39,171 nt of DNA from IMG/VR virus record IMGVR_UViG_3300037440_000281, positions 1 through 39,171 of that record; one strand, written 5' to 3'. The stretch comes from a virus (taxonomy: Duplodnaviria > Caudoviricetes). Both the position numbers and the translations under genes were made by a program. Of the stretch, positions 1,128 through 24,739 are shown in pieces. Position 1 is the stretch's first letter. The number at the start of each line of letters is the position of its first letter. The notes under the pieces were generated by a model. The model was not told where the DNA came from. It ran no database searches and saw nothing but the letters and a program-made list of their open reading frames with translations.

Positions 1128-1198
1128 TGGCGCGGGCCGCTCGCACGACCCGCGCCTTGGTTGCCTGTCCGGTTTGAACAGAACAGTATCAGGCAACC
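1128..1198 (-). ncRNA. Two intergenic hairpins; the first loop shows CUGUUCUGUUCA, the second has a GCGA tetraloop
   Basis: 9-bp stem GGTTGCCTG/CAGGCAACC (1159-1198) and a 12-bp GC-rich stem. Confidence 0.5.
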
Positions 1199-1205
1199 GT
1201 AAGCA

Positions 1206-1499
1206 TTAGTTTCCAGTCATCTGAATCTGATTCTTGTCCACCAGCGTATAGCCTTTCAACTCCATGCACTGCCGAAACAGCCGCACCTGCTTCAACCCGA
1301 TGTCCAGCCCAGACCCGAATCCGGTCTGATACCCAGCCCCGGCGCCAGTGCTGTACTTCTCCGCTTCATACTGGCACTCCTTGAAGTCGTGTTCCGCCTC
1401 AGCCTGGGTTTTGCCGGGGTGATACCAGACACGGTTCGTCGTAGCGCAGCCGGTCAACACCAGCACCGTCAGCAGCATTATCATCGTTGCAATTTTCAT
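1206..1499 (-). CDS. Lipoprotein, possibly superinfection-exclusion type
   Basis: Signal peptide with lipobox LTGC; 'D..EC...A' and 'CM..KGY' motifs. Confidence 0.75.
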   Translation of the reverse strand: MKIATMIMLLTVLVLTGCATTNRVWYHPGKTQAEAEHDFKECQYEAEKYSTGAGAGYQTGFGSGLDIGLKQVRLFRQCMELKGYTLVDKNQIQMTGN

Positions 1500-1535
1500 T
1501 CTGTTTACCTTGGTTTGCTTTATTCGTTTCGCAGT

Positions 1536-2579
1536 TTAGTTCAGACCGAAGTCAGTCGGCTTCAGTTCGAGCACGTAGCTCCCGGCGCGTTCGAGTTCAA
1601 TCGCCCGGTCGTAGTCATCCGAATCTTCGGCAGTGCGAGTCACCGCATTTGCAAGACCCCACAACGACAGATCAGAGCCGCTGGCCAGATGCGTCAGGAC
1701 GCTCTTGGACTCGCCTTCGGTCAGTTCCAACTTCCGGGTAACGACCTCCACCGCGTCAACCGGATTGCCGACCTGCTTGTCAGCCGCCAGCCGCAGTTTC
1801 GCCACTGTCTCGTCAAACCGAAGCTGACTCAGTGAGGCATCCGTCACGTCGCAGACCTTGGCCCAGAATGCCTTGTCATCAAGTTGCCGGGTCTTGTCAC
1901 TGAACATCTCGAATGAATCGTCGCCGTCCACACTGCCCTCGCCAGCGCGGCCCACATGGTTCTTTCGCAGACTGCTGGCGCTTATCATTCCGTTCAGACA
2001 GGCCAGCCGGTAAATCAGCGGCTCGATTTTGATTGCACCGCAACCGACTTCCGAGTTCGTGATGACGATGCCCGCTTGAACCACGTCACCTTTCTTGACC
2101 TCGCCACTGACCCGCTCCGTCACGGCCTGAATGTAGAACCGGCGCTCTGTCATCTCGCACGATTTCACCACGCACCCAGACGCGGAGAGTTTCGGCAGAA
2201 TGACTTCGGCAAGATCGTAGTTGTCCAGCGGCCGATACCGTTCACTCAGGAAAGCACGGGCGACTTTGCCGCCGTTGTCCAGCGTGCGTACCAGACGCTT
2301 TTCTGGGTTGGCGTCAAACCAGTGGTTCACGTTCCGTGACAGAAGCGCCGGCGCCTCAGTCCTCATTCGCTCGGCGTACTTCGCCGGGATGCCAGTGCGA
2401 CCAGCGACTTGTTCCAGACACAGCTTCGTTGGTTTGAAGCTCCGTCCGATCTCGCCAACCGTAAACGTCCCGTCTTCCTCCAGACGCAACTTCCGGGTAT
2501 CGGCAACAAAATCCCGCTTGGACTTTGACTCGGTAAGGATTCGCTCTGCGAGGTCTGCTAATGGTGTTCCAATCTTCAT
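1536..2579 (-). CDS. DUF932/DUF945-family phage/plasmid protein
   Basis: RAFLSERYRPLDN, NSEVG.G, YRLACLNGMI and LWGLANAVT motifs. Confidence 0.85.
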   Translation of the reverse strand: MKIGTPLADLAERILTESKSKRDFVADTRKLRLEEDGTFTVGEIGRSFKPTKLCLEQVAGRTGIPAKYAERMRTEAPALLSRNVNHWFDANPEKRLVRTLDNGGKVARAFLSERYRPLDNYDLAEVILPKLSASGCVVKSCEMTERRFYIQAVTERVSGEVKKGDVVQAGIVITNSEVGCGAIKIEPLIYRLACLNGMISASSLRKNHVGRAGEGSVDGDDSFEMFSDKTRQLDDKAFWAKVCDVTDASLSQLRFDETVAKLRLAADKQVGNPVDAVEVVTRKLELTEGESKSVLTHLASGSDLSLWGLANAVTRTAEDSDDYDRAIELERAGSYVLELKPTDFGLN

Positions 2580-2761
2580 CTGTTCTTTTGTTCTGCTGGA
2601 TTCCCGCCAGCACGGTTTGTTTGAGACGAGTTCACCGTCGCCTCTGCGGTTTTGCTACCAGCAACCAACGGTCGCACCGTAGCCAAATTGAGTAATCTCA
2701 GAATCTCTAATGCGTCCTCATTGTTCGGGACTGAAGGCAGTTTCGATTCTGTTCTGTTCAT
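2576..2761 (-). CDS. Leaderless 61-aa ORF (MNRTES...), possibly a regulatory leader peptide
   Basis: ATG 6 nt after the -10 box; stop overlaps the DUF932 ATG. Confidence 0.5.
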   Translation of the reverse strand: MNRTESKLPSVPNNEDALEILRLLNLATVRPLVAGSKTAEATVNSSQTNRAGGNPAEQKNR

Positions 2762-2767
2762 GTGACA

Positions 2768-3024: not shown

Positions 3025-3274
3025 TGGTCAGTCCCATTCGGCTGTAGGCCGTGTTGTAAGGTCGCATCCCGTCAGCCATCCGTTGTAGCGCCAGTTCCGA
3101 CATCCAACGATCTGAGTGCCGCTGGCAGATGCCGTGGCTGATGGCCAGACCCTTCAAGTCCGGGAACAAGCTCAAGATTGAATCACCGGGGAAGCACCAC
3201 ATGCAGACCGTCACGGTGTTGCCGACAATTTTGTATGGCTCGATTATGCTCACTGTTTGTTCTGTTCTGTTCAT
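2999..3274 (-). CDS. Small Cys/His protein (VCMWC...ISHGIC..H)
   Basis: CxxC plus SHGIC motif, common in small phage zinc-binding proteins; start uncertain. Confidence 0.65.
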   Translation of the reverse strand: MNRTEQTVSIIEPYKIVGNTVTVCMWCFPGDSILSLFPDLKGLAISHGICQRHSDRWMSELALQRMADGMRPYNTAYSRMGLTNERTNYSL

Positions 3275-3318: not shown

Positions 3319-3525
3319 TTAGCCCAGTGGTTTGTCCGGTAGTGAGGCAATGGTGTCCACGTCCTTAGACAACCTGCGCCGCCGCTCAACCGCAATAGCC
3401 ACCTCTGCCGCACCTTTGGAATTGAACTCGGCTTTAATGACTGACCCGTTCTCCACTGCTCGCCAGACTTCCTCGCCGCCGTAGTTCTCAACCCATGCCT
3501 GATCTTTTATTTGGAGTGTTTTCAT
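3319..3525 (-). CDS. Hypothetical protein
   Basis: ATGA-coupled to the HNH-AP2 gene. Confidence 0.55.
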   Translation of the reverse strand: MKTLQIKDQAWVENYGGEEVWRAVENGSVIKAEFNSKGAAEVAIAVERRRRLSKDVDTIASLPDKPLG

Positions 3526-3953
3526 AAATAGCCAAGTTCCTTCCGCTTTTGTCTGGCAACTCTGATTGCATCACTTCGTTTCTTGAAAAGACCCAAGTAT
3601 ATGTTTTTGCCGTTGTAACCTGCGGTGGCTTGCCACCTACCGCATTTGTGGAGCGTCGTTCCTCTAGTCTTAGTGAATTGACGATGTTGTGAACTTTCTA
3701 CCGGGGTCAATAAACGGATGTTTCGACGCGTGCAATCCATTTTGTCAAAGTTCCTATGGTCGGACAGTTGCCACCGCGTCAGGACAATCCCAAGTTTTCG
3801 AGACAGAACAATCCGTTGTGCGAATTCACAAACTATCTTGCCTTTACCTTTAAGCCAGACGTTCCTTCGTGCATATCCCAACTTAGTCAGATACCATGTA
3901 GAGTCGTTTAGGTCTGAGTCCACCTTAGAAAATTTCGGATGACAGATTGGCAT
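3522..3953 (-). CDS. HNH-AP2 homing endonuclease-like protein
   Basis: DHRNFDKMDCTRRNIR (HNH_3-like, degenerate) followed by AP2-like RG...GRWQA......IYLGLF; visibly AT-richer than its flanks. Confidence 0.8.
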   Translation of the reverse strand: MPICHPKFSKVDSDLNDSTWYLTKLGYARRNVWLKGKGKIVCEFAQRIVLSRKLGIVLTRWQLSDHRNFDKMDCTRRNIRLLTPVESSQHRQFTKTRGTTLHKCGRWQATAGYNGKNIYLGLFKKRSDAIRVARQKRKELGYL

Positions 3954-4621: not shown

Positions 4622-4743
4622 GGCCAGAGTCCTATGCAGATGCTCGCCCAGATCACGCAGTAAGAGATTAGTGCGACAACCCGGAGCTTCCAAGTCAGTT
4701 CCTCGAACCACTCGGCGGTGCGGTCTATGATGAATGTTTTCAT
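4618..4743 (-). CDS. 41-aa single-TM protein (MKTFIIDRTAEW...)
   Basis: First ATG after the promoter at 4770; hydrophobic C-terminal half. Confidence 0.55.
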   Translation of the reverse strand: MKTFIIDRTAEWFEELTWKLRVVALISYCVIWASICIGLWP

Positions 4744-4769
4744 GTTCTGTTCTGTTCTTACTACACCTT

Positions 4770-4797
4770 ACAGTAACAGGCCACGGCCTGCCGTCAA
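4770..4797 (-). promoter_or_regulatory. Early promoter TTGACG-N16-TACTGT (TGn), with a palindromic spacer
   Basis: Heads the small-gene operon; operator-like TACAAATTTGTC at 4809-4820. Confidence 0.6.
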
Positions 4798-5091
4798 CCT
4801 CATTTTCATACAAATTTGTCTCTGTAGTCTAACCAGTTGGAATGCCAGTGACGCCAGCTTCCATGCCACTTCTGGACCTCGCCAGCATGGCTGACCAATT
4901 ATCTCGCAGACCGCGTGCCACAATGACGGTCAACAGCGGAATTCTAGGCCTCTCACGTTCGATTTGCGGCGTTTTGAGCCAAAAATAATCTCTCATTTTT
5001 GCCAACAAATTTGATACAACCGCCTTGGTCAATATGTCCACAACCCCCGAAAATCGGACGCGCCTACGGGCCTCCAGACGCGATTGCGGGC

Positions 5092-5556
5092 CTATCGTTC
5101 CTTGTAGAAAATTGCGGTTTTTACAGCCCTAGCCGTAGCCGCAGTCAGTAAGTCATCCGGCTCACAGAAAAGCAGACGCCAACCCAGTCCCGCAGCAAGA
5201 TTCAGCTTTTCCCATTCTCGCTTGAGTAGCACTCCGCGCACATGACCACCCCGATTCCAGATGCCGCCTTGGACTTCCATCGCAACTCTTGAATCAAGCC
5301 AAGCCAGATCAAAACGAAACAGACGGCTTTCACAGAAGTAGAACTCAAAGCAAGGCTCTGGTATCTGGTAGCTCGCAAAGAACGCCTTAACGATCTCCAC
5401 GTTATACGCAAGATGCTTTGTGTCAGCCACAGGCTGCGTCAGTGGCTTGGCAGTTTGTGACTCTGGATTGTGTAGCTTTCTCTCACGTCCAGCAACTACA
5501 CGGCGAACCATGCCCTCAAAGTCTTTTCGATCTATGCCCATTAGTCGCCGTTCCAC
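5092..5556 (-). CDS. PD-(D/E)xK / Vsr-DUF559-like endonuclease
   Basis: EF.F...R.FRFDLAW...VAMEVQGGIW..GGHVRG...EK.N.A...GW. Confidence 0.8.
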   Translation of the reverse strand: MERRLMGIDRKDFEGMVRRVVAGRERKLHNPESQTAKPLTQPVADTKHLAYNVEIVKAFFASYQIPEPCFEFYFCESRLFRFDLAWLDSRVAMEVQGGIWNRGGHVRGVLLKREWEKLNLAAGLGWRLLFCEPDDLLTAATARAVKTAIFYKER

Positions 5557-5852
5557 TTCCTCGATTTGATGATTGAACTCAGGACCTCTACCTTTGCATG
5601 CAATGCACGTTCCGTTTCGATTCTGTCACCGATGCTCCGCAGTGCGTGTGATATGTTCGCCTCGCTAAATCCGTAGCGGTCAGCAATGACACACTGTTCC
5701 AAGTGAAGGCTGTCAATCAGCATCCGCCACATGACACTACGGATGACGAACCGCTTATCTTCCCGACCGCGTGACTTGATGTAATCCACAGGCACGCCAA
5801 AATGCTTGGCGCAAATGTCCTCAATCGTTTCGATCTTTTGGTCTGTTTTCAT
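5541..5852 (-). CDS. DnaA C-terminal-like HTH DNA-binding protein
   Basis: IEDICAKHFGV....IKSRGR....V.R...M...IA..YG....ISHA pattern resembling Bac_DnaA_C. Confidence 0.7.
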   Translation of the reverse strand: MKTDQKIETIEDICAKHFGVPVDYIKSRGREDKRFVIRSVMWRMLIDSLHLEQCVIADRYGFSEANISHALRSIGDRIETERALHAKVEVLSSIIKSRKWNGD

Positions 5853-6358
5853 TTCTGTTCTGGATACGGTTTATGCCAGTCGCCGCGGCCTGCAAGCCAG
5901 CCATACTTTCTTGCCTCGTCACGATTCGCATCGATCCACCGATGGCCTTCATCTGATACCCCCATGAATCCGCGCCGGTCGTAAAGCAACGGCCCAAGCC
6001 GGCCGCGTATGTGATGCGGGCATTGGGTTATCGGAACCCTCTTTCTGAAAATGGTAAGCATGACTGCGCATGATTGGCCTTCAACTTCCGACCACCATTG
6101 CCGTTTGACCCGGTTGTAAACCTTCAGCCTCTCCCGTTGCCGAATCGAAAGCGGCGATAGTCTCTTGAACGCCTTCGGTCCTAGCGATTTCGAGTATCGC
6201 TTTGTTGAACTTTTCCCGCGCCGCCCTGCGTTGCGGGAAATTGACTGCCTGCCTTTTGGCCAGTTCGTATTCAGCGGATGCGTTCCTGATTTTGTTGCGG
6301 ACGCGCCATCTCGAATCTGCACCCAGAGCGCCGGCTTTGTCTTTCGTTTCCATTTCAC
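5849..6358 (-). CDS. HNH-like (Ref/NinG-like) nuclease, degenerate; start uncertain
   Basis: HHIRGR...H.WID.N..EA...GWL. Confidence 0.6.
   Translation of the reverse strand: MKWKRKTKPALWVQIRDGASATKSGTHPLNTNWPKGRQSISRNAGRRGKSSTKRYSKSLGPKAFKRLSPLSIRQRERLKVYNRVKRQWWSEVEGQSCAVMLTIFRKRVPITQCPHHIRGRLGPLLYDRRGFMGVSDEGHRWIDANRDEARKYGWLAGRGDWHKPYPEQK
6081..6353 (-). CDS. Hypothetical helical protein overlapping the nuclease ORF
   Basis: ATG just after the upstream stop; natural-looking composition. Confidence 0.45.
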   Translation of the reverse strand: METKDKAGALGADSRWRVRNKIRNASAEYELAKRQAVNFPQRRAAREKFNKAILEIARTEGVQETIAAFDSATGEAEGLQPGQTAMVVGS

Positions 6359-6534: not shown

Positions 6535-7832
6535 GGCTTGACCATACAGGTCACTTGCTCGAAATAAATCTTCACTGCGCCGGGGCGTTTCTCATGAAGC
6601 CTGCGAAAGAACGATTTTCTCTCGCGGACATCCGTGTGCTCGCCGCCTTCCAGCAGGAGATTGGTCCCGCGATTCTCGACCAGCATGGCGTGATGGATGC
6701 AGACGGTCTGGAAGCCGACGGACTCACAGAGGCGGCGCCAGTTACCGTTGAAGTCAACCTCCTGACCCTTGCGGACGAAGTTTTTGCAAATCCAAATCGC
6801 GTGACCTCCAGGCCGCAGCAGCAGGAAGGTCTGCTCGACGATCTGACGTGCCGACTCCCAAAAAGTATTAGGTGCGCTTCGCGTTGTATCTCCGCTGTGC
6901 TTGCAGCTTGGACTCTCGCTTGCATTCTGGTGAACACGCTGGAATTCCTGGGCCGATGTGCTTGAACCCAACTCCGCAGACCGGGCAAACAGTTCGCCGC
7001 TCCCTGTAACGTCGTGGCGTTTTTCCGTGACAGGATACGCACAGTGTTTCGAGATTTTCGATTGCGTTGTCCCAGACTCCACCTGTCTCGCTCTGGTCTT
7101 TTTTGTGATGGACTTGGAGCATGTGAGTTGATCCGCACTTGACGCACTTATGGCCGTCTCTTTTGAGCGCGGCTCGGCGCCGTATCCTTTGACGTTGATG
7201 CCGCCGACCGACGTGTATTGCTGAATGAACGGCGGACTCGATATGGCCGCGCTCAAGTCGCCCTCTTTCATGGCGCCGAGTTGGCCTTCGGATTCACCGT
7301 ATTTCATCTGATGTTTACCGTCCGCCTGACAACCGTTTCTGGTTTCTGATTTCCCCCATCGCTCTGGACGCTTCGCCTTATCCCAGTCAATCCCTGACTG
7401 GCTGCTGTTGATCGAATCGGCGTAAGGCGGACTGGCGATGCTCACGTCCGCCTCGCGCACCAGTTGCGCCAGCTTGCGCGAGTCGCCGTTGAGCCGGGTC
7501 CAGCGGGCGGCTTGAAACGCCGGCCACGCTCCGTAACGACGCTGCCACAGGGCCGCGTTCTCGCCCTGCAAATCGTAAAAAGCTTTTTCCAGTTCGCAGG
7601 AAACCACGTTGATACCTTTCAACAGACACGGCAGGGCGGTGGTGCCGATTCCGCCGAAAGGCTCAAGGCAAGTCTGGCCAGCGCGGAGCCAGCCTTGGTC
7701 GAGGCAATGCTGGACGATGCGGAAGATTAGAGCCTTTGATGCTTTTGCCGGGTGGCTGTAGGCTGCCGGAACAAGGTCGTCGCCCCAGCCTTCGCCATAG
7801 CAGTCAGTCCACTCAGATGTTTCGATATTCAT
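6531..7832 (-). CDS. DNA amino-methyltransferase (N4/N6-type) with a large internal insertion
   Basis: SHPAK, EPFGGIGTT (motif I), SPPY and a second SPPF (motif IV), LLRPGG. Confidence 0.85.
   Translation of the reverse strand: MNIETSEWTDCYGEGWGDDLVPAAYSHPAKASKALIFRIVQHCLDQGWLRAGQTCLEPFGGIGTTALPCLLKGINVVSCELEKAFYDLQGENAALWQRRYGAWPAFQAARWTRLNGDSRKLAQLVREADVSIASPPYADSINSSQSGIDWDKAKRPERWGKSETRNGCQADGKHQMKYGESEGQLGAMKEGDLSAAISSPPFIQQYTSVGGINVKGYGAEPRSKETAISASSADQLTCSKSITKKTRARQVESGTTQSKISKHCAYPVTEKRHDVTGSGELFARSAELGSSTSAQEFQRVHQNASESPSCKHSGDTTRSAPNTFWESARQIVEQTFLLLRPGGHAIWICKNFVRKGQEVDFNGNWRRLCESVGFQTVCIHHAMLVENRGTNLLLEGGEHTDVRERKSFFRRLHEKRPGAVKIYFEQVTCMVKP
6868..7182 (-). CDS. HNH endonuclease domain nested in an alternative frame of the methyltransferase; no canonical start upstream of the domain
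   Basis: Hand extension gives RRRAALKRDGHKCVKCGSTHMLQVHH...NAIENLETLCVSCH...CPVCG..F...ACSPEC. Confidence 0.75.
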   Translation of the reverse strand, partial: RRRAALKRDGHKCVKCGSTHMLQVHHKKDQSETGGVWDNAIENLETLCVSCHGKTPRRYRERRTVCPVCGVGFKHIGPGIPACSPECKRESKLQAQRRYNAKRT

Positions 7833-9541
7833 TCCAGTATCGGCTTGGCCGACATGACTTCGTTGTTACGGCCAGTCATCACGCCAGCCGTCCGCAACGC
7901 ACTCAAAGAATTCTTAAAAGACCCGCTCGCCTCGTAGCTCGTGAACCGGCATAGCTGTTCCATGTCCAGCCCGTCTGGATTGGACACCAGCGCCTGCAAG
8001 ATGGCTCGCTCACACTTTCCAAAGTGCGGAAAGTTCAGCCAGTAATTGATTCGCTCCGCGCCAGTCGGCAGTTCAGCAAATGGACCGTGCGCCCGGCCTT
8101 CAGCCGTAATCTGCATGACCGAATTGTTCTCACCGACTATCAAGCCGCCAGTCCGCAACGCACTAAGACAGTTCTTAAATGAACCCGACATCGTGTAGCC
8201 GGCCAGCAAAGCGACCTTGCCGATCGTACAGCCATGCTCGTAGCCAGCCAACACGCGCAGGATGGCCATCTCACACTTGCCAAGTTTGCCATTCGATTGA
8301 GTTGTAACTCGCGGAGGCACGGCGGGCCGCACGGTAACAGCCCGTTCTGACGGCACCTGCCGTGCCTCGATTTTCATAGGCAGCAATTTCGCCTTGAAAA
8401 ATTCAATGTCCGGCGCGAAGTGCCTTTGGACCTCGGCTAGTTGAACCGACTTCAAGACCGCGTCCTTTGCACACTCGACGATCTTGTTCAACGTGTTGAC
8501 CAGACTTGTCAACCGCTTCCGGTCGCCATTGGTCAGGGCTGACTTTACCTGAACCACAGGCTTGGCCGGCAGTGGTTGGGTTGACTTTACCTGCCGCTCC
8601 AGTTCCCGAATCCGCGCCTTCAGCAACTCAGGGTCGTTGGCTTTGGCCTGCTGAATAACCTTGGGGATGCTGTCAGAAAGCTTTGATACAAAGTCAGCCG
8701 TGTTAATTGGCTTGGCCGACTTTATCACAATCTCAGGAGTGCGCCGATCTGGATGAAACGAACGGCACATCGGAATTCTTTCCTTTGTAGGATGGTCAGG
8801 ACTTTGTCGGGTCCACACCCACGCCTCACCAGCCTTCAATCCCGGCAACGATTTTTCCACGGATTCAGCAGTTGCACGATCAAGCCGTTCTACCCACGTT
8901 CCGATTGCCTCGATAGCCTTGTTGCCGATCTGACAGCCAAGTACAAGCGTCGTGCATTGGTCCAAGACAGCCTTGTTCACTTCCTGACTACGCTGATTGA
9001 TTAGAGTGATGCCCACTGAATTGTTGCCGCCCATCCGAACCAGCTTCTCGACCTCTGCGTATGTCTCTCCGTCAATGACCCTCTGAGGTACGAACTCAGC
9101 AGCTTCCTCCAGAAAGACATGCACCGCGCCGCCTTCGTTCTCATAGTGGATGATTCGGATGGCCTGCTTGACGATCTTCCGCCAATCAGACTTGCTCAGA
9201 TTCTTGTCGTATAGATCAATGACCAGCGGGATACGTTCTCGCAGCGCCGCCCGCACAATCTCAGACACACTCTCAGGGGTCAAAGGTAGATCGGCGTGAC
9301 GGCCTCCTGCCACAACCACACTGTACCCTTTTCCATGTGAGTGGTCAGCAGGCACCTTCAGCCATCTCCATTTGCCTACTGCATCAAAGATGATTGGCTG
9401 AACATTGTTGTCCAGAAGTTGCTCGCAGATACCCTTCCCGGTAACGGTCTTGCCACAGTTCCGAATACCCAGCAACGCAGCCGCGCCAACGGCATACTCA
9501 GACACAGACAGCGTCACAGTTCCAATCGTGATGTGCTTCAT
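7829..9541 (-). CDS. HerA/FtsK-like (DUF87) ATPase with tandem C-terminal wHTH-like repeats
   Basis: GIRNCGKT Walker A, VFLEEA Walker B, R.GG..SVG...INQR; duplicated GKCE.AIL...SGSFKN.LSALRT.G. Confidence 0.8.
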   Translation of the reverse strand: MKHITIGTVTLSVSEYAVGAAALLGIRNCGKTVTGKGICEQLLDNNVQPIIFDAVGKWRWLKVPADHSHGKGYSVVVAGGRHADLPLTPESVSEIVRAALRERIPLVIDLYDKNLSKSDWRKIVKQAIRIIHYENEGGAVHVFLEEAAEFVPQRVIDGETYAEVEKLVRMGGNNSVGITLINQRSQEVNKAVLDQCTTLVLGCQIGNKAIEAIGTWVERLDRATAESVEKSLPGLKAGEAWVWTRQSPDHPTKERIPMCRSFHPDRRTPEIVIKSAKPINTADFVSKLSDSIPKVIQQAKANDPELLKARIRELERQVKSTQPLPAKPVVQVKSALTNGDRKRLTSLVNTLNKIVECAKDAVLKSVQLAEVQRHFAPDIEFFKAKLLPMKIEARQVPSERAVTVRPAVPPRVTTQSNGKLGKCEMAILRVLAGYEHGCTIGKVALLAGYTMSGSFKNCLSALRTGGLIVGENNSVMQITAEGRAHGPFAELPTGAERINYWLNFPHFGKCERAILQALVSNPDGLDMEQLCRFTSYEASGSFKNSLSALRTAGVMTGRNNEVMSAKPILE

Positions 9542-9998: not shown

Positions 9999-10387
9999 AG
10001 ATTTTTCAGCAATTGCAATCGGACGTTCTTTCCAGTCGCTGCATTTTCATCCCGGCCTTTGTTGTCCAGAAACTGAAACGTCTCGACGAACATGAAATGC
10101 TTGTAGCGCTTCTGGCCAGTCTGTTTGTCATCCCACATGTCCAACTCCAGCCGGCCATTGAACAAGATCGCATGGCCCTTCCGAGTGTATTGCATGATGG
10201 TTTCGGCTGTCCGGCCAAACGCCTTGAAGTCCACGAACAAGACCTTTTCTTTTTTCTGGCCGTCATCGCCAGTCCACACCCGGTTGACGGCTATGCCGCC
10301 TTGCACGATGGCCGTGCCCTTCGGGGTGTAGCGCATCTCACAATCTCGCGTCAGAAAACCTACCAGCACCAAACAGTTAAAGTTCAT
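9995..10387 (-). CDS. ssb: Single-stranded DNA-binding protein lacking an acidic tail
   Basis: N...LVG.LTRD.E.RYTP.G.A....IAVNR...F.D..AFGRTAE....Y..KG....GRL..D.W. Confidence 0.92.
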   Translation of the reverse strand: MNFNCLVLVGFLTRDCEMRYTPKGTAIVQGGIAVNRVWTGDDGQKKEKVLFVDFKAFGRTAETIMQYTRKGHAILFNGRLELDMWDDKQTGQKRYKHFMFVETFQFLDNKGRDENAATGKNVRLQLLKNL

Positions 10388-10408
10388 TCCGTTCTGTTCT
10401 TTCGTTGG

Positions 10409-10930
10409 TTACTTGACGACCTCAGCCATCCAGATTCGCACGTTTCGATTATGCGCCCTGCCGATGGCGTTAAAGATCAACTTCAGATTGTCAGCGACAT
10501 TCTCGACGCGCTCAGGCTCGAAACCACTGCCAACCTCGATCTCGACCAAGTCGCTGCTGACTTCATTGTTCCACTTCAGTTTGAAGTCGCCATTGAAAAT
10601 TGAGTTGAGGGTTGTCTCAAGCAGACTGGTCCAGACCTTGACCGAATCAGGCTGACACGGCTTGTGCATGATGACACGGGCATCCTCGGTCGGTTCCTCG
10701 ACGATCAATTCAAAATCAGACAACGCAATTGCGCTTCCAACACCTTGAAGCGCACGATGAATTGAACCACTGGGCCCAACCAGCCGGCCTGTGTCAGACT
10801 TGACCGCTCGCAGGAACAACACGCTGCCAAAGCCAAGCTTCCGAAACCGACTATGCAGCTTGTTCGGATGCCCGACAATTAGCCTTGCAAGCTTCTCGAT
10901 CACATTTGAGGCGATTTCTTCTCTGTTCAT
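10409..10930 (-). CDS. KH-domain RNA-binding protein (KhpA-like N-terminal half)
   Basis: DTGRLVGPSGSIHRAL, a GxxG loop in KhpA-like context. Confidence 0.7.
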   Translation of the reverse strand: MNREEIASNVIEKLARLIVGHPNKLHSRFRKLGFGSVLFLRAVKSDTGRLVGPSGSIHRALQGVGSAIALSDFELIVEEPTEDARVIMHKPCQPDSVKVWTSLLETTLNSIFNGDFKLKWNNEVSSDLVEIEVGSGFEPERVENVADNLKLIFNAIGRAHNRNVRIWMAEVVK

Positions 10931-11412: not shown

Positions 11413-12248
11413 ATCAGCGTCGTCTGAATCTCTCGCTTGATGTCCAGACCGATTGCCGGAAAGTCCTCCAGCCATCGCCCAGCGCAGCGTATTGCCAGCG
11501 ACCGGTCCAAGTTGCCTTTGAAAAAACATGGAGTTCCGTCGAGTACCGCCAGCACGTTCCGTAAATCACTTTCGGCTGGCTGGTAGTAAACACGACCATT
11601 CGACGCAGCGCCGATCACGGCCCACTTTAGCAAGCCTTTGAACTCAGCAAGAATCGGCGCGATGTCGAAACTCAAAGGCTCAATGGACATCCACGGCCAC
11701 TTTGCACCGCACCGGCTCAATCGCTCCAGACCAACACGCAACCATTGCGCCTGCTGTTCAGGCGTCAGCAGCTTGCCGAACATCTTGGTAGGCGGTGCGC
11801 TGATGCCACAAAGCAGATTGTCCAACTGTGCCAACTGCGCGAAGCCAGTCAGCCGAACCGGATTCTTGGTCAGCGTAAAGAACACATGCCACGGACACGC
11901 CTCGATTGTGGCCAAGACTTCGTTAATCCATGCAGACCTCACATCGTGTCCGAATAGGTCTGACATTGAGCACAGGAAAATTCCAGCCCGTGTCTTATGC
12001 CGACGCACCTCAGCTAATGCCTCTGGATGCCATGTAATCTTTTCAAACGCACCGACGCCATTCATTCTATCACGCAAAGTTTTTGCATAGCACTCCACAA
12101 GACCGCCGCCAATGTTCCACTCACAACCATGCTTACACCCCCGAACTGGATTGACTGTGTAGCCGGTGCCGACCCCAAGCACATGGGTCCATTCGATGCA
12201 CAAACTAGTTATCTTCCCATCCTTGTCGCGCTTCACCTGCGAGTTCAT
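11409..12248 (-). CDS. Phage Gp37/Gp68 (DUF5131) radical-SAM-like protein
   Basis: IEWT...NPVRGC..GC...CYA, IFLCSMSDLF, LTKNP.R, W.SIEPL, WAVIGA, FFKGNL. Confidence 0.88.
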   Translation of the reverse strand: MNSQVKRDKDGKITSLCIEWTHVLGVGTGYTVNPVRGCKHGCEWNIGGGLVECYAKTLRDRMNGVGAFEKITWHPEALAEVRRHKTRAGIFLCSMSDLFGHDVRSAWINEVLATIEACPWHVFFTLTKNPVRLTGFAQLAQLDNLLCGISAPPTKMFGKLLTPEQQAQWLRVGLERLSRCGAKWPWMSIEPLSFDIAPILAEFKGLLKWAVIGAASNGRVYYQPAESDLRNVLAVLDGTPCFFKGNLDRSLAIRCAGRWLEDFPAIGLDIKREIQTTLI

Positions 12249-12925: not shown

Positions 12926-12934
12926 AAAGTAAAT

Positions 12935-13040: not shown

Positions 13041-13045
13041 AAAAG

Positions 13046-14067: not shown

Positions 14068-14621
14068 AGTTCACCTTCTTTCTGTTGCTCCGCGGCCGGC
14101 GCTTGACTACTCGCCAAGCCCGACTGTCCGTCAGTCGCCCCCTTACACAGTGAGACGCTTTCGGAATCGCAGTCTGCCGGCTGCGGAAAATGTTCGTCAA
14201 GGACGGCTTGCACCCAGCGGATGATTCGCGCTGCGGAGCCAGTCGAGCCATCCCAGTCACCCGAGTAGTCCGGCCCTTTACCCCTGACCGGCGAATGAAA
14301 AGAGCACTGGCCGGTCGGCAGTGTTACGTACAACACCCACGGATAGTAAGGTTGCTCTGGGTCTTGTTTCCAGCCGAACAGAATGTTCAGTTCCGCGCCG
14401 TGCTTTTCGAGTACGTCACACAGGTTGGCCATGCTCCACTGCTTCTTGTCGTAGGCCACACCCTTGAACCTTCTCGAGTACTCTTTGGCACGGCCAGAAG
14501 CTTTCTGAGCACGAAAGATATTCAAAGCCACTACGCCCACCGGCCCGATGGACTGCAACCGCTCGTAGAGCGCCTTCGTGGCGCCACCGTCCGAGCCGTT
14601 GTAGATCGTCAAGGCGTTCAC
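14058..14621 (-). CDS. Conserved-looking phage protein (VLYV.LPTGQ.SFH...Y.G.WDG)
   Basis: Recognisable motif, function unknown. Confidence 0.75.
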   Translation of the reverse strand: MNALTIYNGSDGGATKALYERLQSIGPVGVVALNIFRAQKASGRAKEYSRRFKGVAYDKKQWSMANLCDVLEKHGAELNILFGWKQDPEQPYYPWVLYVTLPTGQCSFHSPVRGKGPDYSGDWDGSTGSAARIIRWVQAVLDEHFPQPADCDSESVSLCKGATDGQSGLASSQAPAAEQQKEGELWP

Positions 14622-15649: not shown

Positions 15650-15694
15650 TTCTGTTCTTTCGTTCGCAATGTCTAAACGGTCGGCGGTCCCCTG

Positions 15695-16360: not shown

Positions 16361-17132
16361 TGGATAGCTCCACTCGTATTTGGTTGAAAAAGTCTTTGAA
16401 GCCGTAGATTGTCGCGGCCTTCTTGCAGTTGGACGCAAACTGGTCGCTCCGCGCTCTAGTCCAAGCCGCCTTGGCAATCTCCAGCAGTTCGACGCGTGCG
16501 ACGTGAAGCTCAAGAAGTTCTGAGGTTGCCTTGGCGTCTCGACCATTGAATTTGAAATCGAAGCCAAAGAACTCCTTGAAGTTCTCCGTCCAGCCTTTGA
16601 TGAATAGGTGATGCTCGGAAGTCTCCTTGGTCACTGGCGGTGGCTCAACTCGCCTTTCCACCGCGCCAGCGGAAGAGTACTTATTCTTATCCTTATGCCT
16701 CTGCCTCTCCTTGGCGTTACTTGCGTTACCAAGCGTTACAACTGCGTTACATGTTCCTATGTGCTTCTTATTCAAGCGGAACCGCTTAACCCTTTCGTGA
16801 GTCTTTTTACGCCTTTGATCTTCACTGGCTATCTCTCGATAGTACTCATAGTTCACAATCAGCCATCCCCAGTCACGGTGACTTTCAAGACGCGCAATCC
16901 TAGCCCCGCCAGCTTCAGGATTCCGGCTCTTGCTGTCCGGCCGTTCAAGAGCGGCGATGCACGCTCTTACGATTTCCAAAGGGACATTTGTAAATCTGGC
17001 AATACCTTCGTGCGTCATGTCCACCACACCGTTTTGATCTGCCAACACGAGCATGTCCATGAAAACCAACCGCTCTTGCCAATTCTCCGCGATACTTGAT
17101 GAGTAGATTTGCTGGAAGATTTTAGCGTACAT
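16251..17132 (-). CDS. Phage replication initiator (replisome-organiser type)
   Basis: YAKIF..I..SSI...ML.LAD..G...PD..SR...G.RI...GW.IVNY..YR; low-complexity linker; upstream of the DnaC-like gene. Confidence 0.8.
   Translation of the reverse strand: MYAKIFQQIYSSSIAENWQERLVFMDMLVLADQNGVVDMTHEGIARFTNVPLEIVRACIAALERPDSKSRNPEAGGARIARLESHRDWGWLIVNYEYYREIASEDQRRKKTHERVKRFRLNKKHIGTCNAVVTLGNASNAKERQRHKDKNKYSSAGAVERRVEPPPVTKETSEHHLFIKGWTENFKEFFGFDFKFNGRDAKATSELLELHVARVELLEIAKAAWTRARSDQFASNCKKAATIYGFKDFFNQIRVELSNETNQRNNSKGGRIVADRNAGTLNRPSDYAGIKEKL
16681..16750. repeat. Probable origin iterons: 4x GCGTTAC plus an adjacent strand-asymmetric tract
   Basis: GCGTTAC at 16714, 16723, 16733 and 16744, inside the initiator gene. 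Confidence 0.65.
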
Positions 17133-17140
17133 GTTTTTGT

Positions 17141-17306
17141 GACAGACCAATACGAGGCTCGGCTTCAGAAGAAGGAACGCCGGCTGGCGCCGACTCACCC
17201 GGTTTGCACCGGCCTTCGCACGAACCCCGTATTGATCTGTCTGAGATTTTCACCATAGCGTTCTGAACCGCTTTGAGCATCCTACAAACAAAGCTCCACC
17301 CGTCAA
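17141..17306 (-). promoter_or_regulatory. Promoter TTGACG-N16-TAGGAT and a structured leader (21-bp stem) for the initiator gene
   Basis: Arms 17141-17161 and 17221-17241 pair with G-U; internal GCAA tetraloop hairpin. Confidence 0.65.
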
Positions 17307-17356: not shown

Positions 17357-18991
17357 CTAGCTCACCAGTCCGGTCAAGAAACGGCTCGGTATGGCCGGCT
17401 CGTATTGGCGAGTGAACCGGTTCCGGCGCTTCAGTGCGTAGCTCAGGATGCACACATGCCGGGCGCGTGTGATGCCGACGTAGGCTAGGCGCTTTTCTTC
17501 GGCCTCGTCACCCTTGCGAGTCGGCAGAATGCCGTCCTCGAATGCCGGCATGAACACGACATCAAACTCCAGTCCCTTCGCACTGTGTACCGTTGAAACC
17601 ACAACGCCGGCTTTGTTCTCGATCTTGAAACTCGCGTGCGACACAGCGAACAACAGGTCTTGCACCGTGCCGTCCGTCAATTGACTGGCCAGATCCGCCA
17701 ACCGGCTGACTGATTCAGCACTCAACCCCATCCGAGCCAATCGTTCCAGTGCCACGTTCAGACTCATTTGGCCGGTCAATTGCAGCGCCACTTGGTTGAT
17801 GGATTTCAACTGCGCCAGTGACTGCCGCCGCACTTCATCGGCCACTTCACGTCCTTTGCTCAACAGCACAGCTTTGTACGCCAGCCAATCGTTCTCCGGG
17901 TCCGACAACAGCGCCACGAACGCCAGCGCCTTTGGCCAGTCCACCGGCATGGCAATGGACTGCCTCGCCACAGTCAGGCCCATGTTCTCCAGTCCAGTAG
18001 CCCACTCCGCTACCAGCGCATTGGTCCGAACCAACACAGCCACGGATGCAGGTTGTGCCTCACGTATCAGCTTGGCCACGTCCACTATCTCGCTCTCGCC
18101 AGTTTCTGAGTCGCGGATGGCCACGGCCCCCGGCTTGCCGCTGACCGAAACCATCTTCACCGTGCCGTTCAAGCGGTTGGCCGCTTTGACGACACATTCA
18201 TCCGACCTAAAGTTGCGCGTCAGGTAAACTTTTTGCACCGCTGGATTGTCCAGCATTGCCGTGAAGTGCGACACGTTGCCGCCACGGAACGAAAAGATGG
18301 CCTGATTCTGGTCCCCGACGTAAATCTTTTCCGAGCACGGCATGGCTTGGTAAATGGCCATGTCCAAGTCGCCTGAGTCCTGAACCTCGTCGCACAGGAG
18401 CACGTCATAAGGCCACTGGTCCGGTTTGATCTGCCGCAACACCGCCAGACCGCGATGCAGTATCATGTCGAACGTGACGAGGTTGTTCCGCTGAACTCTC
18501 TGGTAGAATGCGCCAGCAACCAACTGCGGCTTGCTCCAATGGCTGGCAGGCATAGGGTAACTCAACCAATCACGCACAGCAGCCTCTAGCGCGACCCCAG
18601 TGCCACTATAGCGGCTCTCCGTGGCCACTTCCTCAAGTAACTCCACCGCCTGTTGCTCAGACAGTATCCCGAACTTGGCCGGAAACCCAAACGCAGGACC
18701 GAATCGCATCAGCAACCGAACCATGAACGAATGGAGCGTACCCGCAAACCCCAGATACGAACCAGACTGAGCCGGCCAGCCCATGCGCTGGCGCACGCGT
18801 CGGTCTAGTTCATTCGCTGCCGCATTGGTAAATGAGACGCAGCAAATTCTGTTGGGGTGGACACCAGACTCAATCTTTCGCACGATTCGTTCGATGATAA
18901 CTCGCGTTTTTCCTGAACCTGCTGATGCAGTAACTAACAACATGTCAGCAGCGCAATTTACTGCGGCATTTTGTTCTGGTGATAAATTCAT
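17357..18991 (-). CDS. uvrD: UvrD/PcrA-like SF1 helicase
   Basis: ASAGSGKT, SFTNAAA.EL, GTLHS, DEVQD, VGDQNQAIF.FRG, NFRS, STVHSAKGLEFD, EEKRLAYVGITRAR. Confidence 0.93.
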   Translation of the reverse strand: MNLSPEQNAAVNCAADMLLVTASAGSGKTRVIIERIVRKIESGVHPNRICCVSFTNAAANELDRRVRQRMGWPAQSGSYLGFAGTLHSFMVRLLMRFGPAFGFPAKFGILSEQQAVELLEEVATESRYSGTGVALEAAVRDWLSYPMPASHWSKPQLVAGAFYQRVQRNNLVTFDMILHRGLAVLRQIKPDQWPYDVLLCDEVQDSGDLDMAIYQAMPCSEKIYVGDQNQAIFSFRGGNVSHFTAMLDNPAVQKVYLTRNFRSDECVVKAANRLNGTVKMVSVSGKPGAVAIRDSETGESEIVDVAKLIREAQPASVAVLVRTNALVAEWATGLENMGLTVARQSIAMPVDWPKALAFVALLSDPENDWLAYKAVLLSKGREVADEVRRQSLAQLKSINQVALQLTGQMSLNVALERLARMGLSAESVSRLADLASQLTDGTVQDLLFAVSHASFKIENKAGVVVSTVHSAKGLEFDVVFMPAFEDGILPTRKGDEAEEKRLAYVGITRARHVCILSYALKRRNRFTRQYEPAIPSRFLTGLVS

Positions 18992-19731
18992 GGAAGCCTC
19001 ACGAATCGCCGTCTTTTTACAATGTCGTAGATTTCATTCCGCGAGACGCCAAACTCCTTGGCCAGCATGTTTCCAGTTACGCGATGTGGCAGATACCGAA
19101 GTCTTATTTCCACTACCTGCTCATTTGTGAGAATCGCACGACAATGAGTCTCACAGAAATTCTTTTGAAGCCCGGTCTGCTTCGCATGTTCTAAGTTTTC
19201 AGCGCTAGTGACCCATTCAAGATTTTCGATTCTATCATCCGTTTTTACTCCAGACCTATGATTTACTTGAGGCTTGTTGGAAGGATTATGAATGAAGGCT
19301 GTCGCAACCATTCGTCCAACTAGCCTTTTGATAGGAACGCCACGCTTACATAGGCTCACAACACGATACCCGTGTCCGCCAATTGATGCTTTCAAATCAC
19401 GACCTTTGTGCCCTGCGTTTCCCCTGGATAGGGATCGGACATTGCCGAGATTGCTAACCTCGTACAGACCTTCGTAACCTATTATTTGACGCCATTCTTC
19501 GTTCACTGTCGCACCTGTTTGGAAGCCCTGCCGTCCCGGTGTGCAACAGTCCAGCATGAAGCCGGTTGTAGCCTTTCGGCGTTCCGAGACGGCAGGAGAT
19601 TTGTCGAACCTGTTGCACGATTTAAGACTACCAGCCCAGCACACACTGTCAATAAATACCGCCGCGCTGATAAGCACGACCGGGCCTTTGGCGGTCACGG
19701 CCTCCTGTTGTTCGGTAGTCAGTTCTTTCAT
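18988..19731 (-). CDS. NUMOD4-HNH homing endonuclease fused in frame to an orphaned UvrD N-terminus
   Basis: MKELTTEQQEAVTAKGPVVLISAA stub; EEWRQIIGYEGLYEVSNLG; QVNHRSGVKTDDRIENLEW. Confidence 0.88.
   Translation of the reverse strand: MKELTTEQQEAVTAKGPVVLISAAVFIDSVCWAGSLKSCNRFDKSPAVSERRKATTGFMLDCCTPGRQGFQTGATVNEEWRQIIGYEGLYEVSNLGNVRSLSRGNAGHKGRDLKASIGGHGYRVVSLCKRGVPIKRLVGRMVATAFIHNPSNKPQVNHRSGVKTDDRIENLEWVTSAENLEHAKQTGLQKNFCETHCRAILTNEQVVEIRLRYLPHRVTGNMLAKEFGVSRNEIYDIVKRRRFVRLP
19527..19652 (-). promoter_or_regulatory. Internal promoter TTGACA-N16-TAGTCT plus target/anti-target hairpin
   Basis: GTGCAACAG versus CTGTTGCAC; stem CCTGCCGTCTCGG/CCGGGACGGCAGG. Confidence 0.65.
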
Positions 19732-20705
19732 CGGCAGCATAATGGTTTCCCTTTGAAGTCAAACACGCCGTTCTGTTTCAGCAGGCCAAGCCGTATGGCT
19801 TTGCGAATGGCTGGCAGGCTTTGCTCTCGATCCCATTCGTATGGCGACGGCGCGTAATACTGACCGGGTAGAGGTTTATCAGGACAGTGTTTGTAAGTCG
19901 GCAGACTCGATGCCGTGAACATAACCCACGATTCATCCTCCATGCTTCCACCATAGGCGTAACGCCGATAGCGCGGCTCAGGCTTCAAGAGCAACCAGCC
20001 GTCTCCATGAATTCCGTCACGACTGGTCATGTAAACCTTGACCCCTTTGTAATCAAGCAACAGCCATTCGTGGTACGTCGGCAGATCGTCTGGCAGCAGG
20101 TAGAATTCTTGGATTTTATCCCATCCGCGCCGCCACGCGCCTTTGATTGCCGCACCCGTTCTACGGTCGCGATCGTACTGGTCGCACTCCAAATCCCGGA
20201 GCATGTCCGGGTTGGCAAGTATGGTTGATCTCGTGTGCTCGCGTTCGATAGCCCACAACTCCTTGTTCCAACCTTTGGCCGTGTAGCGTTTTGGATTCTC
20301 TCCGTAAATGGCAGTGAACTTGTCGGCGTATGGCGCAGCGCACTTCTTGCAGATGTGCCCGGAGATTTCATAGTGCCTGTCATACTTGGGAAGTTTGTCC
20401 ACGAATAGCACGTAATTGCCATTCATCGAACCGCTGCCGATTAGCGGGATGCTCAAGAATGGATACCGTATCACACGAAAGATTCCGGGTGGTTTGGCTG
20501 GACAGCAAGTGACTGTCAGTTCCGCCTTGCACAAGATGAAGTCGCTGACATCGCTAGGCATTACATCGCCATCGCCGCATAGTTGGCAGGTGCGAACAAT
20601 GTCCCGGTAACAACTTTCGCAAACATCCTTCCACTTGCCACGCTTGACCTCAGCGCCTAGAGAGTTGGATTCGTTAATCTTCTCACCGCATTCGTAGCAT
20701 TTCAT
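19728..20705 (-). CDS. Hypothetical protein with several CxxC motifs
   Basis: CYEC, CESC, CQLC, CKKC. Confidence 0.7.
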   Translation of the reverse strand: MKCYECGEKINESNSLGAEVKRGKWKDVCESCYRDIVRTCQLCGDGDVMPSDVSDFILCKAELTVTCCPAKPPGIFRVIRYPFLSIPLIGSGSMNGNYVLFVDKLPKYDRHYEISGHICKKCAAPYADKFTAIYGENPKRYTAKGWNKELWAIEREHTRSTILANPDMLRDLECDQYDRDRRTGAAIKGAWRRGWDKIQEFYLLPDDLPTYHEWLLLDYKGVKVYMTSRDGIHGDGWLLLKPEPRYRRYAYGGSMEDESWVMFTASSLPTYKHCPDKPLPGQYYAPSPYEWDREQSLPAIRKAIRLGLLKQNGVFDFKGKPLCCR

Positions 20706-20729
20706 AATTTCATTTCTGTTCTGTCTCCA

Positions 20730-23307: not shown

Positions 23308-23340
23308 ATCGTTTCTGTTTCTGTTTCTGTTTCAGTCCGT

Positions 23341-23607
23341 TCAACCTTCAGTTTCCACTTCCGCGATGCCTTCGTCCACAACAACCGCTTCGATTGAAGC
23401 AGGTATTTTGTCGTAGAGCCGACCGGCGCTGATGGTCCCAGGTTTGCGCGTCTTGTAGAACGCCGACACGTAGCCCTGCGGCACTCCGTTGAACATGACT
23501 CGGATTGACTCGTTGTCGTATTCGTTGGCCGGGTCTTTGGTCAGAGTGACCTTGTCGCCGATGTTGAGAATGCCGGGTTTTGTTGTGAGTGTGATTCGAT
23601 GTTTCAT
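23341..23607 (-). CDS. HIRAN-domain protein
   Basis: L.IGD.VTL.KDP.NEYD..SI.V.....GYV. Confidence 0.8.
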   Translation of the reverse strand: MKHRITLTTKPGILNIGDKVTLTKDPANEYDNESIRVMFNGVPQGYVSAFYKTRKPGTISAGRLYDKIPASIEAVVVDEGIAEVETEG

Positions 23608-23625
23608 TTTAGTTTGGTTGTTTCG

Positions 23626-23871
23626 TTACGACTCTGCCGTGATGACTAGAGCCTTTCTTGTTCGGACAGTTCCATCTGCTTTGAAGTCAGTCCCGCCATC
23701 TGCGTCCAGCATTTCATGCGTGTTCAGTGCCGCGTCAGTAACCGGCATGATACAGCACCCATCGCTTTCGAGCGGGTGCGTGCATTTCGATTTGTCCACG
23801 CACACAAGACGGCGTCCATGTCCTGCATTTTTTAGCAGTGTGAGTATCTTGAACAAACGGTTGATCGTCAT
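23626..23871 (-). CDS. Hypothetical protein
   Basis: Coupled ORF. Confidence 0.6.
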   Translation of the reverse strand: MTINRLFKILTLLKNAGHGRRLVCVDKSKCTHPLESDGCCIMPVTDAALNTHEMLDADGGTDFKADGTVRTRKALVITAES

Positions 23872-24677
23872 GTCGTTGGTTGAGTTGGCTTCGGGTTGTA
23901 ATCCATTGCGCCTTCGGGCAGGCCGTCCACGTAACCGCCGCGCTCCAAAGCGATGTTGATGCTGATGGCCATGCGCTCGATCTCGTCAGTCGTCAGTTGA
24001 ATCTTGTGCTTCCGGTCCACGTTCCCGGCGACATACATCGCCGCGTCGAAAGCAATTAGCAACGAGTTGGCCAGCTTCCCGGTGTACACCCGCGCCTTGC
24101 GGATGCACTCTTTTTGATCTTCAGGACTGCCGGGCGCGGGGCGTGCTTGCTGCTGGCGTGGCGGCGGTTGGCTTACCGGCTGCGCTGGCTGCGCTGGTGC
24201 GGCTGGCGCGTGTGCTGGTTGCGTCGGCTGCTGCGGATGTTGCGGATGAACTGGCGGCTGTGACTGTGACTGCGGCGCCGGTGCCACGTTGGCCGGCTGC
24301 GGCGCTTGCTCCGCACCAAACTGGCCAGTGTCCTGCGTCATGGTCGCTCTATCGTCAACGACAATCACAGTGCTGGTACGGCCGCGGTACTCCTCAGTCT
24401 GCTTGGACATTCCGAGCCACGGCTTCTTGTCACCGGGAACAGCTTGAAACACGACCATGATATTGGTCCATTCCTTCGTGAGTTGCGGCCGATTTTTCAG
24501 CTTCAGTTTGATCTCACCAGCGCCATCGGTAACGGTACAGTTCTGAAACGACCACGGGCCATGTTCGTTTGAACCGTCTTTGTATTCGGTGATTTTTTTG
24601 AACCTCACACGGCAGGATGGTATCGGGTCGCCGTCACGGAGTTGGAGGATTTCTGCTACGGACAGGATTTGACTCAT
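23868..24677 (-). CDS. OB-fold (RPA-like) ssDNA-binding protein with a P/Q/A linker
   Basis: V.FKKI.EY.......W..Q...VTDG.GEI.L.L OB-fold pattern. Confidence 0.6.
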   Translation of the reverse strand: MSQILSVAEILQLRDGDPIPSCRVRFKKITEYKDGSNEHGPWSFQNCTVTDGAGEIKLKLKNRPQLTKEWTNIMVVFQAVPGDKKPWLGMSKQTEEYRGRTSTVIVVDDRATMTQDTGQFGAEQAPQPANVAPAPQSQSQPPVHPQHPQQPTQPAHAPAAPAQPAQPVSQPPPRQQQARPAPGSPEDQKECIRKARVYTGKLANSLLIAFDAAMYVAGNVDRKHKIQLTTDEIERMAISINIALERGGYVDGLPEGAMDYNPKPTQPTT

Positions 24678-24739
24678 ATCTGTTCTTTCTTGGTTGCGGC
24701 ACTGCTTTTAATTCGTTCGCAGCGCCTACGTTACAGACA

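Follow-up and report, generated by a model that had tools for sequence, protein, structure and literature searches.

To our knowledge, the known phage antisense RNAs (C4, CI, sar and OOP) each control one gene or one operon. Small RNAs of the GcvB type direct a G/U-rich seed at degenerate C/A-rich elements near many starts, and these are host RNAs that depend on Hfq and have their own promoter and terminator. Here we describe a 39,171-base fragment of a tailed phage (the viral record IMGVR_UViG_3300037440_000281, analysed over its entire length and called the window below), in which a short word, the tag (core AACAGA), stands at the starts of many non-structural genes, whilst its complement, the anti-tag, occupies the loop of an intergenic hairpin, hairpin A (1159-1198, minus strand), the candidate seed of a regulatory RNA. 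The likeness to GcvB lies in one seed used against elements near many start codons; the difference is that here a near-exact tag has been placed by the phage in genes of its own.

The closest published parallel, unnamed in an earlier, sequence-only reading of this DNA, is the start-associated sequence (SAS) of cluster K mycobacteriophages, a private asymmetric word found at the starts of non-structural genes only, in one orientation and in 11-19 copies (PMC3203893, PMC11373665). One reversed copy lies away from starts in the K1 phages Anaya, Adephagia, Angelica and CrimD, and the word itself is a 13-mer with a Shine-Dalgarno core, 3-9 nt from the start (PMC3203893). Described in 2011, SAS still had its role called unknown in 2024, and no RNA partner is given in the parts of the two papers drawn on here (PMC3203893, PMC11373665); the novelty of what follows may be affected by Fig. 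S3 of PMC3203893, where the reversed sites appear. The tag resembles SAS in being a private asymmetric word confined to non-structural starts (14 of 49, as against none of 23 late starts and about 1% of control starts) and in having a single anti-word copy away from starts, here a 9-mer in loop A. It differs in being a GAACA repeat without a Shine-Dalgarno core, placed anywhere from -24 to +8 and entering the coding sequence at leaderless starts.

The parallel extends to the reversed copies themselves. In the stretch of Anaya available (45.8 of 60.8 kb) there are 16 forward SAS sites and one reversed site at 59870 (44871-44883 of locus L273), which lies in the loop of an intergenic hairpin, with its core open in local folds (p unpaired 0.99-1.0) and less so in a 250-nt fold, and this hairpin adjoins a 16-bp stem. 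In CrimD (3.7 kb) the reversed site at 58838 (2836-2848 of locus L274) likewise lies in an open intergenic hairpin loop, beside a stem of 16-17 bp; being close kin, the two phages count as one case. This result moves the question from an uncultured phage to phages growing on M. smegmatis, and an antisense hairpin would give SAS a concrete, testable partner.

Among the antisense RNAs, C4 of P1/P7 is cut from a longer transcript and blocks the binding of ribosomes to phage mRNA, with which it pairs in trans through short loops; it has three stem-loops, two seeds (a' and b'), RNase P processing and one target operon, as described in the part of PMC5320573 used here. The RNA proposed at hairpin A would resemble it in being released from a longer transcript and in pairing through a loop with the ribosome-binding region of its targets, where a complementarity of 7-12 nt is present; it has one seed, two adjacent hairpins and about 14 targets across 24 kb. 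CI of P4 is a processed RNA that pairs with the flanking seqA and seqC, leading to transcription termination (PMC4825925, again in part). Like CI, the RNA proposed here would share a transcript with some of its targets; unlike those of CI, the targets are the start regions of many operons over 24 kb, and no flanking layout of the seqA/seqC type was seen. An Rfam scan of the whole window returned no match to any of 4,227 families at E up to 1, hence none to the C4 or CI models, and this, together with the single seed, the lack of a seqA/seqC layout and the many operons, rules out membership in either group. The comparison with CI and C4 drawn in the sequence-only reading is useful as an analogy, then, but does not extend to structure or family.

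Both halves of the system, the start tag and the antisense hairpin, have known kin. A literature search, with most subscription papers and supplements outside its scope, found no description of a start tag used throughout a phage and matched by an antisense hairpin, and the phage RNAs reviewed in PMC12197685 have, in the part of that review used here, single phage targets or host targets. If true, one seed acting on a standard tag at the heads of a dozen or more operons would amount to a genome-wide RNA translational switch, and a short tag with one hairpin would be a compact tool for switching many genes jointly.

The start tag

The 72 genes of our manual tiling all lie on the minus strand, as do the features listed below, with the tail and lysis genes running from 39169 to 24965 and the non-structural region following downstream. 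Starts were chosen by this tiling with the upstream stop, some of the small open reading frames (ORFs) being doubtful, and an automatic gene caller (both strands, ORFs of at least 80 amino acids) served as a cross-check. AACAGA lies within -25..+20 of 14 of the 49 non-structural starts and of none of the 23 late starts (Fisher p 0.002), against 3.1% of random positions. It had been claimed from the letters alone that the word marks many early and middle genes and is missing at the tail genes; all 13 starts named at that time do carry it within these limits, an additional one was found at 505, and the tail genes are indeed free of it. Comparison with shuffled sequence gives the same picture, as shuffled windows have 1.9 tagged starts on average and 8 at most, with none of 2,000 reaching 14, and even the best hexamer of any kind reached no more than 12 starts in 1,000 shuffles. 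With the starts of the automatic caller, the word is found at 11 of 79 in the window and at 5 of 29 in L003, the contig of the sole relative (see below).

Generic control loci were used in place of host-gene starts. AACAGA is found at 5 of 577 starts in 21 bacterial loci, 21 of 2,371 in 116 loci with a DUF932 gene and 26 of 2,603 in 80 loci with a zinc-finger gene, that is about 1% throughout, so that it is not a generic A/C-rich signal in these three sets. The tag is private to this phage lineage.

In its full form the tag is a GAACA repeat of 7-16 nt, written GAACAGA(ACAG), at positions -24 to +8, and it is mostly predicted to be unpaired. It is carried by 10 of the 17 starts preceded by a gap of at least 10 nt and by 4 of the 32 coupled starts (p 0.002), an excess to be expected in part, as gaps can vary freely. 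Shine-Dalgarno-like words stand at 12 of the 49 non-structural and 5 of the 23 late starts (background 7%), and a single start has both such a word and the tag, where about 3.4 are expected. Translation with few Shine-Dalgarno sequences has been reported for Bacteroidota and some Verrucomicrobiota (PMC10783764, in the part used here).

A scan for promoters of the TTGAC type lists seven sites in the window and two in L003, of which three in the window (24767, 4797 and 2795) and both in L003 precede tagged genes; a further one, at 17306, precedes the untagged replication initiator, and the three others of the window are unrelated to the tag. Leaderless messages are predicted for window 2761 and for L003 1435 and 3705, where 6-7 nt separate the -10 box from the ATG, and at these three starts the tag occupies codons 2-5. 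It lies inside the first codons at 3274 (also in L003) and 10930 as well. Since the tag enters the coding sequence where a leader is absent, an action at the RNA level would explain it better than one at the DNA level. As a separate observation, the sites 24767, 2795, 4797 and 17306 of the window and 1401 and 3670 of L003 have a 16-nt spacer, and several of them have TG ahead of the TAA(A/G)TT box.

Followed downstream, the tagged starts begin behind the promoter-like site at the head of the non-structural region (24740-24767; TTGACC, 16 nt, TAAATT), whose first gene, 24677 (RecT-like, by a weak match), has its tag at 24679-24686. Three AAACAG copies (23311-23332) precede 23307, an SbcC-like ATPase, and tags at 20714-20724 and 15650-15658 precede 20705 and 15649, two genes of no assigned function (325 and 221 amino acids). 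The first of these had been placed at about 20713; the word is there, but the ATG at 20713 opens an ORF of three codons only, and the 325-residue gene really starts at 20705, with AACAGA at -15. This three-codon ORF (20702-20713) lies right behind the tag and its stop overlaps the start of the larger gene. A variant tag (14080-14089) precedes 14067 and is a 10-nt complement of loop B (see below), a tag in codons 1-3 (10922-10929) opens the KH-domain gene 10930, and another (10387-10400) precedes 10387, the single-strand binding protein gene SSB. At 5852, a gene with a weak DnaA-C helix-turn-helix match, tags flank the start on both sides (5842-5862). The promoter-like site at 4770-4797 (TTGACG, 16 nt, TACTGT) is followed by 4743 as its first gene, with a three-unit tag (4743-4758) that is an 11-nt complement of loop A.

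The 12-nt complements of loop A are those in codons 1-6 of 3274 (MNRTEQ; 3258-3273), kept in L003, and in codons 1-5 of 2761 (MNRTE; 2747-2760), whose start, predicted to be leaderless, follows the -10 box by 6 nt. This box belongs to the promoter-like site at 2768-2795 (TTGACA, 16 nt, TAAGTT), the predicted source of a transcript running through 2761, 2579 and 1499 into hairpin A, with the same layout at L003 1401. Tags precede 2579, which encodes the DUF932 protein (2579-2586), and 1499 (1499-1505), the gene directly upstream of hairpin A and absent from L003. The last tag (519-525) lies at -20 of 505 and is kept in L003; in the window it is predicted to be paired in cis (p unpaired 0.15). 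The partner predicted there is a 10-nt anti-tag inside ORF 505 (461-477), 50 nt away from the tag upstream of it, and a regulatory pairing of the two was rejected, the anti-word not being kept in L003.

Hairpin A and structure B

Hairpin A consists of a perfect 9-bp stem (1198-1190 with 1167-1159) and a 22-nt loop that holds the anti-tag CUGUUCUGUUCA (1186-1175). The 12-nt complementarity to 2761 and 3274 that had been read from the sequence is borne out, covering +1..+12 (from the UG of AUG onward) at both genes. The region folds far better than its shuffled versions (z -4.6, 0 of 200), and the 9-mer GTTCTGTTC has one copy on the coding strand, in this loop, whilst its complement has six, all at starts. 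Perfect stems of at least 9 bp with loops of 8-26 nt number only two in the 39 kb, and one of them holds GTTCTGTTC. The other perfect 9-bp hairpin of the window (26794-26828, minus strand) occupies the gap ahead of gene 26757.

Loop A matches 15 non-structural and no late starts by at least 7 nt, which only 10 of 20,000 shuffled loops equal, and its complementarity to the targets (7-12 nt) falls inside -25..+20. In a scan of intergenic loops against starts that was blind to the seed, the window ranked first and L003 second among the 56 locus-strands returning a match (first and fifth among 82 loci), and the top match of the window was hairpin A.

A second stem begins 2 nt after hairpin A. It has 12 bp rich in G+C, two G-U pairs, a GNRA loop (GCGA; GAAA in L003) and no U tract behind it (1129-1156, minus strand), and a terminator scan of the window lists neither hairpin as an intrinsic terminator. 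Given the lack of a U tract and its absence from that list, we read it as a probable protective or processing stem. In both phages its two G-U pairs and GNRA loop form on the coding strand alone, which is also the better-folding strand (-43.9 versus -39.2 and -44.9 versus -36.7 kcal/mol), and these points together fix loop A as antisense to the tag. The possibility that the word at hairpin A is a tag in the leader of a plus-strand gene was discarded, because no start follows in the window or in L003. Among the contigs of two sequencing runs (DNA), no listed piece lies over hairpin A or the second site described below.

The search for relatives covered 117 DUF932 loci, 79 of them of at least 4 kb. 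The anti-word was found in one of these 79, L003 (compared without 8.4 of its 21.2 kb), whose DUF932 protein is 89% identical. Here the anti-tag hairpin follows DUF932 directly, the counterpart of gene 1499 being absent, and its stem, again perfect and of 9 bp but unrelated in sequence, encloses the loop GUUCUGUUCUGUUC (2815-2844); the same 12-bp stem follows, with a GAAA loop (z -6.8 for the fold). The anti-tag word lies in one of two perfect hairpins of L003 and nowhere else on the strand. In this one relative, then, the seed loop is conserved while the sequence of the scaffold stem changes, which agrees with the expectation, voiced earlier, that the loop should be conserved. Seven L003 starts carry complements of 7-14 nt, and some of them belong to genes unrelated to those tagged in the window: one encodes a WGR-ligase, one an HNH protein, and another is an ORF not seen in the window. 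Two of the seven (7385 and 9259) have 13-nt complements and lie behind other promoters. The first of these opens a gene (7385-8572) in which a WGR domain is fused to an ATP-dependent ligase domain.

No third relative was found by DNA pattern scans (two with no matches, others with 15, 35 and 21) or by further protein scans (loci with zinc-finger genes or KH genes). On inspection the pattern matches were unrelated, one of them (L166) being a repeat inside a gene, and the sole protein matches were HNH genes in two loci (L142 and L161).

Structure B, the other site put forward in the sequence-only reading, is a predicted multibranch RNA (12934-13041, minus strand) with a closing 10-bp stem and a U-rich run behind it, lying ahead of an HNH gene and containing GGUUCUGUUG (12997-12988). 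It is intergenic and folds well (z -5.1). However real it looks, it is a weak candidate for a second regulator: GGUUCUGUUG is partly paired (p unpaired 0.15-0.92), most targets are matched by 6-8 nt only, and the 10 starts matched by at least 7 nt are equalled by 284 of 20,000 shuffled loops, as against 10 for loop A. The best match of loop B, 10 nt, is to the leader of 14067, about 1 kb upstream. As HNH gene 12925 follows directly, structure B may instead control this gene. Of the two anti-tag hairpins proposed, one is therefore strong and the other present but weak, and the antisense interpretation is partly supported, for hairpin A (private tag, unique anti-tag in the loop, loop kept in L003) and not for hairpin B as a second regulator.

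A proposed antisense switch and its alternatives

The interpretation that we favor, with a little better than an even chance of being correct, is that an antisense RNA derived from the 3' end at hairpin A represses the translation of the tagged early genes by pairing with them. Transcription would start at promoter 2795 and run through 2761, DUF932 and 1499, the last of the early operons, into hairpin A, from which processing would release a stable 3' piece of about 70 nt with two hairpins, no promoter of its own being seen. This RNA would then pair in trans, by 7-12 nt, within the ribosome footprint of targets up to 23 kb off, in the best of them over the AUG itself, and translation of the tagged operon heads would be lost; repression, in other words, rather than activation. 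As the tagged genes are mostly operon heads, their silencing could also shut down coupled genes downstream. The build-up of the RNA would most likely serve as a negative feedback ending the early programme, other conceivable purposes being the maintenance of a quiet state or the exclusion of kin. In its widest form the proposal is an RNA-only master switch, in which one private tag stands at every early operon start (within the opening codons where a gene is leaderless), one 3'-end hairpin RNA, possibly with a double-KH chaperone, silences all of them, and the same design is the missing function of the cluster K SAS; this we hold tentatively, at somewhat less than an even chance.

The candidate chaperone, which may aid pairing, is a phage protein of 173 amino acids (10409-10930, minus strand). 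Its N-terminal domain is a KH domain like that of KhpA, and a second domain resembles the first in secondary structure. Its match to Pfam PF13083 (E 1.7e-4) is below the curated cut-off, whilst its family profile matches KhpA at E 2.5e-7 (PDB 7xqc), and in the GxxG loop G52 is invariant and G55 nearly so in 20 sequences. It has 23 matches among 1.84 billion representatives, and no named member was seen in this family of phage two-domain KH proteins (about 20 homologues); none of the KH-protein loci was found in viral contigs or cultured phages. The protein belongs to an Atlas cluster of mostly viral KH proteins (a score of 0.83, to be taken as a lead only). The model built from its alignment is confident and two-domained (pLDDT 96.5), the single-sequence fold is poor (pLDDT 41), and a whole-chain Foldseek search with the model gave no good match (TM at most 0.31). 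In bacteria that have neither Hfq nor ProQ, KhpA and KhpB bind RNA globally (10.64898/2026.10.12.757534, in the part used here); the phage protein is like them in its N-terminal KhpA-type domain with a GxxG loop and differs in being a phage protein of two domains. It is a candidate for an RNA chaperone of the pairing or for a rival binder of the tag.

Several observations weigh against the repression proposed. Loop A is predicted to be partly open, with p unpaired of 0.32-0.68 at its 5' end and 0.87-0.98 at its 3' end; 22-nt windows inside ORFs, at 461-477 and 14383-14397, equal or exceed loop A in the number of starts matched; and pairing is limited to 7-8 nt at 8 of the 14 targets (-10 to -14 kcal/mol), energies also reached at the untagged starts 11529 and 34389. 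Because of these points the case is carried by the hairpin context and its conservation, and not by complementarity alone. The sole relative, moreover, shares the same seed as the window, and departures from the tag are wobble-compatible in only two of five cases. The tag at 10930 may reflect the conserved MNR N-terminus of the protein, since MNR opens 6 of 19 homologues. The exact anti-SAS 8-mer was not found in the stretches of Pixie (36 of 61 kb) or TM4 (33 of 53 kb). Repeated leader words without a nearby anti-word hairpin are also common in related small-gene arrays (L206, L241, L256 and L200; 20-kb views), so that the tag alone would be ordinary.

This commonness of private repeated leaders (seen also in PMC3203893, in the part used here) is where one could begin to doubt the hairpin altogether, reading the tag as an A-rich unstructured enhancer of initiation spread by the copying of leaders, and the complement in the hairpin as chance or an element acting at the DNA level. 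The tags being mostly predicted unpaired and the existence of other complements within ORFs fit such an explanation. It is nevertheless hard to reconcile with a loop that survives the complete replacement of its stem in L003, that has no second copy of its word on the strand in either phage, and that in each lies in one of two perfect hairpins, next to G-U pairs and GNRA loops that point to RNA, and we find it distinctly improbable. We regard as improbable to the same degree the idea that pairing is local only, with the hairpin folding back onto the starts that share its transcript (2761, 2579 and 1499) and the other tags being by-products of leader copying. The best target (12 nt) does head the same predicted transcript, and CI and C4 act inside their own operons (PMC4825925, PMC5320573, each in part), but targets no worse than this one are found behind other promoters (4743, 3274 and 10387; 7385 and 9259 in L003), and the distant operon heads 24677 and 23307 are tagged.

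If an RNA does pair with the tags in trans, its effect might instead be to activate or license translation; it could, for example, be an adaptor through which ribosomes or a protein partner reach starts without a Shine-Dalgarno sequence. Such a role would suit the scarcity of Shine-Dalgarno-like words and their near exclusion from tagged starts, as well as the tags' marking of de novo starts, and the conserved GNRA stem could dock on the partner. The exclusion is partly trivial, though, because both words compete for the same bases. A duplex over or after the AUG would obstruct the ribosome, and the tag covers or follows the AUG at 2761, 3274, 5852 and 10930 and at L003 581, 1435 and 3705, which makes activation rather unlikely. 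Marginally more unlikely still is that the tag serves to bind a protein, e.g., the phage's KhpA-like protein, and the hairpin a decoy (on the CsrB-like model) that displays the tag on an opposite-strand transcript. KH domains read about 5 nt, the size of the tag's repeat unit; the KH-domain gene lies within the region and is tagged at its own start, and the plus strand also folds, with GAACAGAACAG in its loop. On that strand, however, the neighbouring stem loses two pairs and the GNRA loop in both phages, a scan of the window lists no promoter-like site on the plus strand, and a decoy would be expected to show several copies of the tag.

Neighbouring features and other loci

Besides the genes already named, the non-structural region encodes a helicase, a replication initiator (a weak match), a DnaC-like protein, a methylase-like protein and many small genes of no assigned function, and no capsid, integrase or repressor was recognised among the genes of the window. 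A scan of the window for tRNA and tmRNA genes returned none, and the matches of the SSB protein in cultured phages are at most 47% identical. Three HNH endonuclease genes lie on the minus strand, at 12245-12925, 18988-19740 and 3522-3953.

Small-gene arrays of other phages (L206, L241, L244, L256 and L200) have private leader words at up to 23 starts, with no antisense hairpin within the stretch examined. In the 80 zinc-finger-gene loci, the other high ranks of the seed-blind scan were rejected as analogues: five (L265, L236, L197, L246 and L256) were set aside since their words are self-complementary and were read as DNA operators, and another (L263) because its word is the ribosome-binding site of a gene on the opposite strand. 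Repeated self-complementary words stand before small genes in those five and in L248, and are likely DNA operators.

In the window itself, a near-palindrome, ACAAATTTG, recurs at 93, 4810-4819, 5005, 24746 and 26069; it could serve as an operator or belong to the promoter. About 140 nt of leader, in which small inverted repeats occur (17132-17306, minus strand), separate the promoter-like site 17306 from the untagged replication-initiator gene. Finally, a non-coding block at 4969-5098 (7125-7254 in L003) is 78% identical between both phages; contigs of run X1 break at this block, with one 60-nt piece there at double depth, and it is possibly a genome end, a repeat or an origin.

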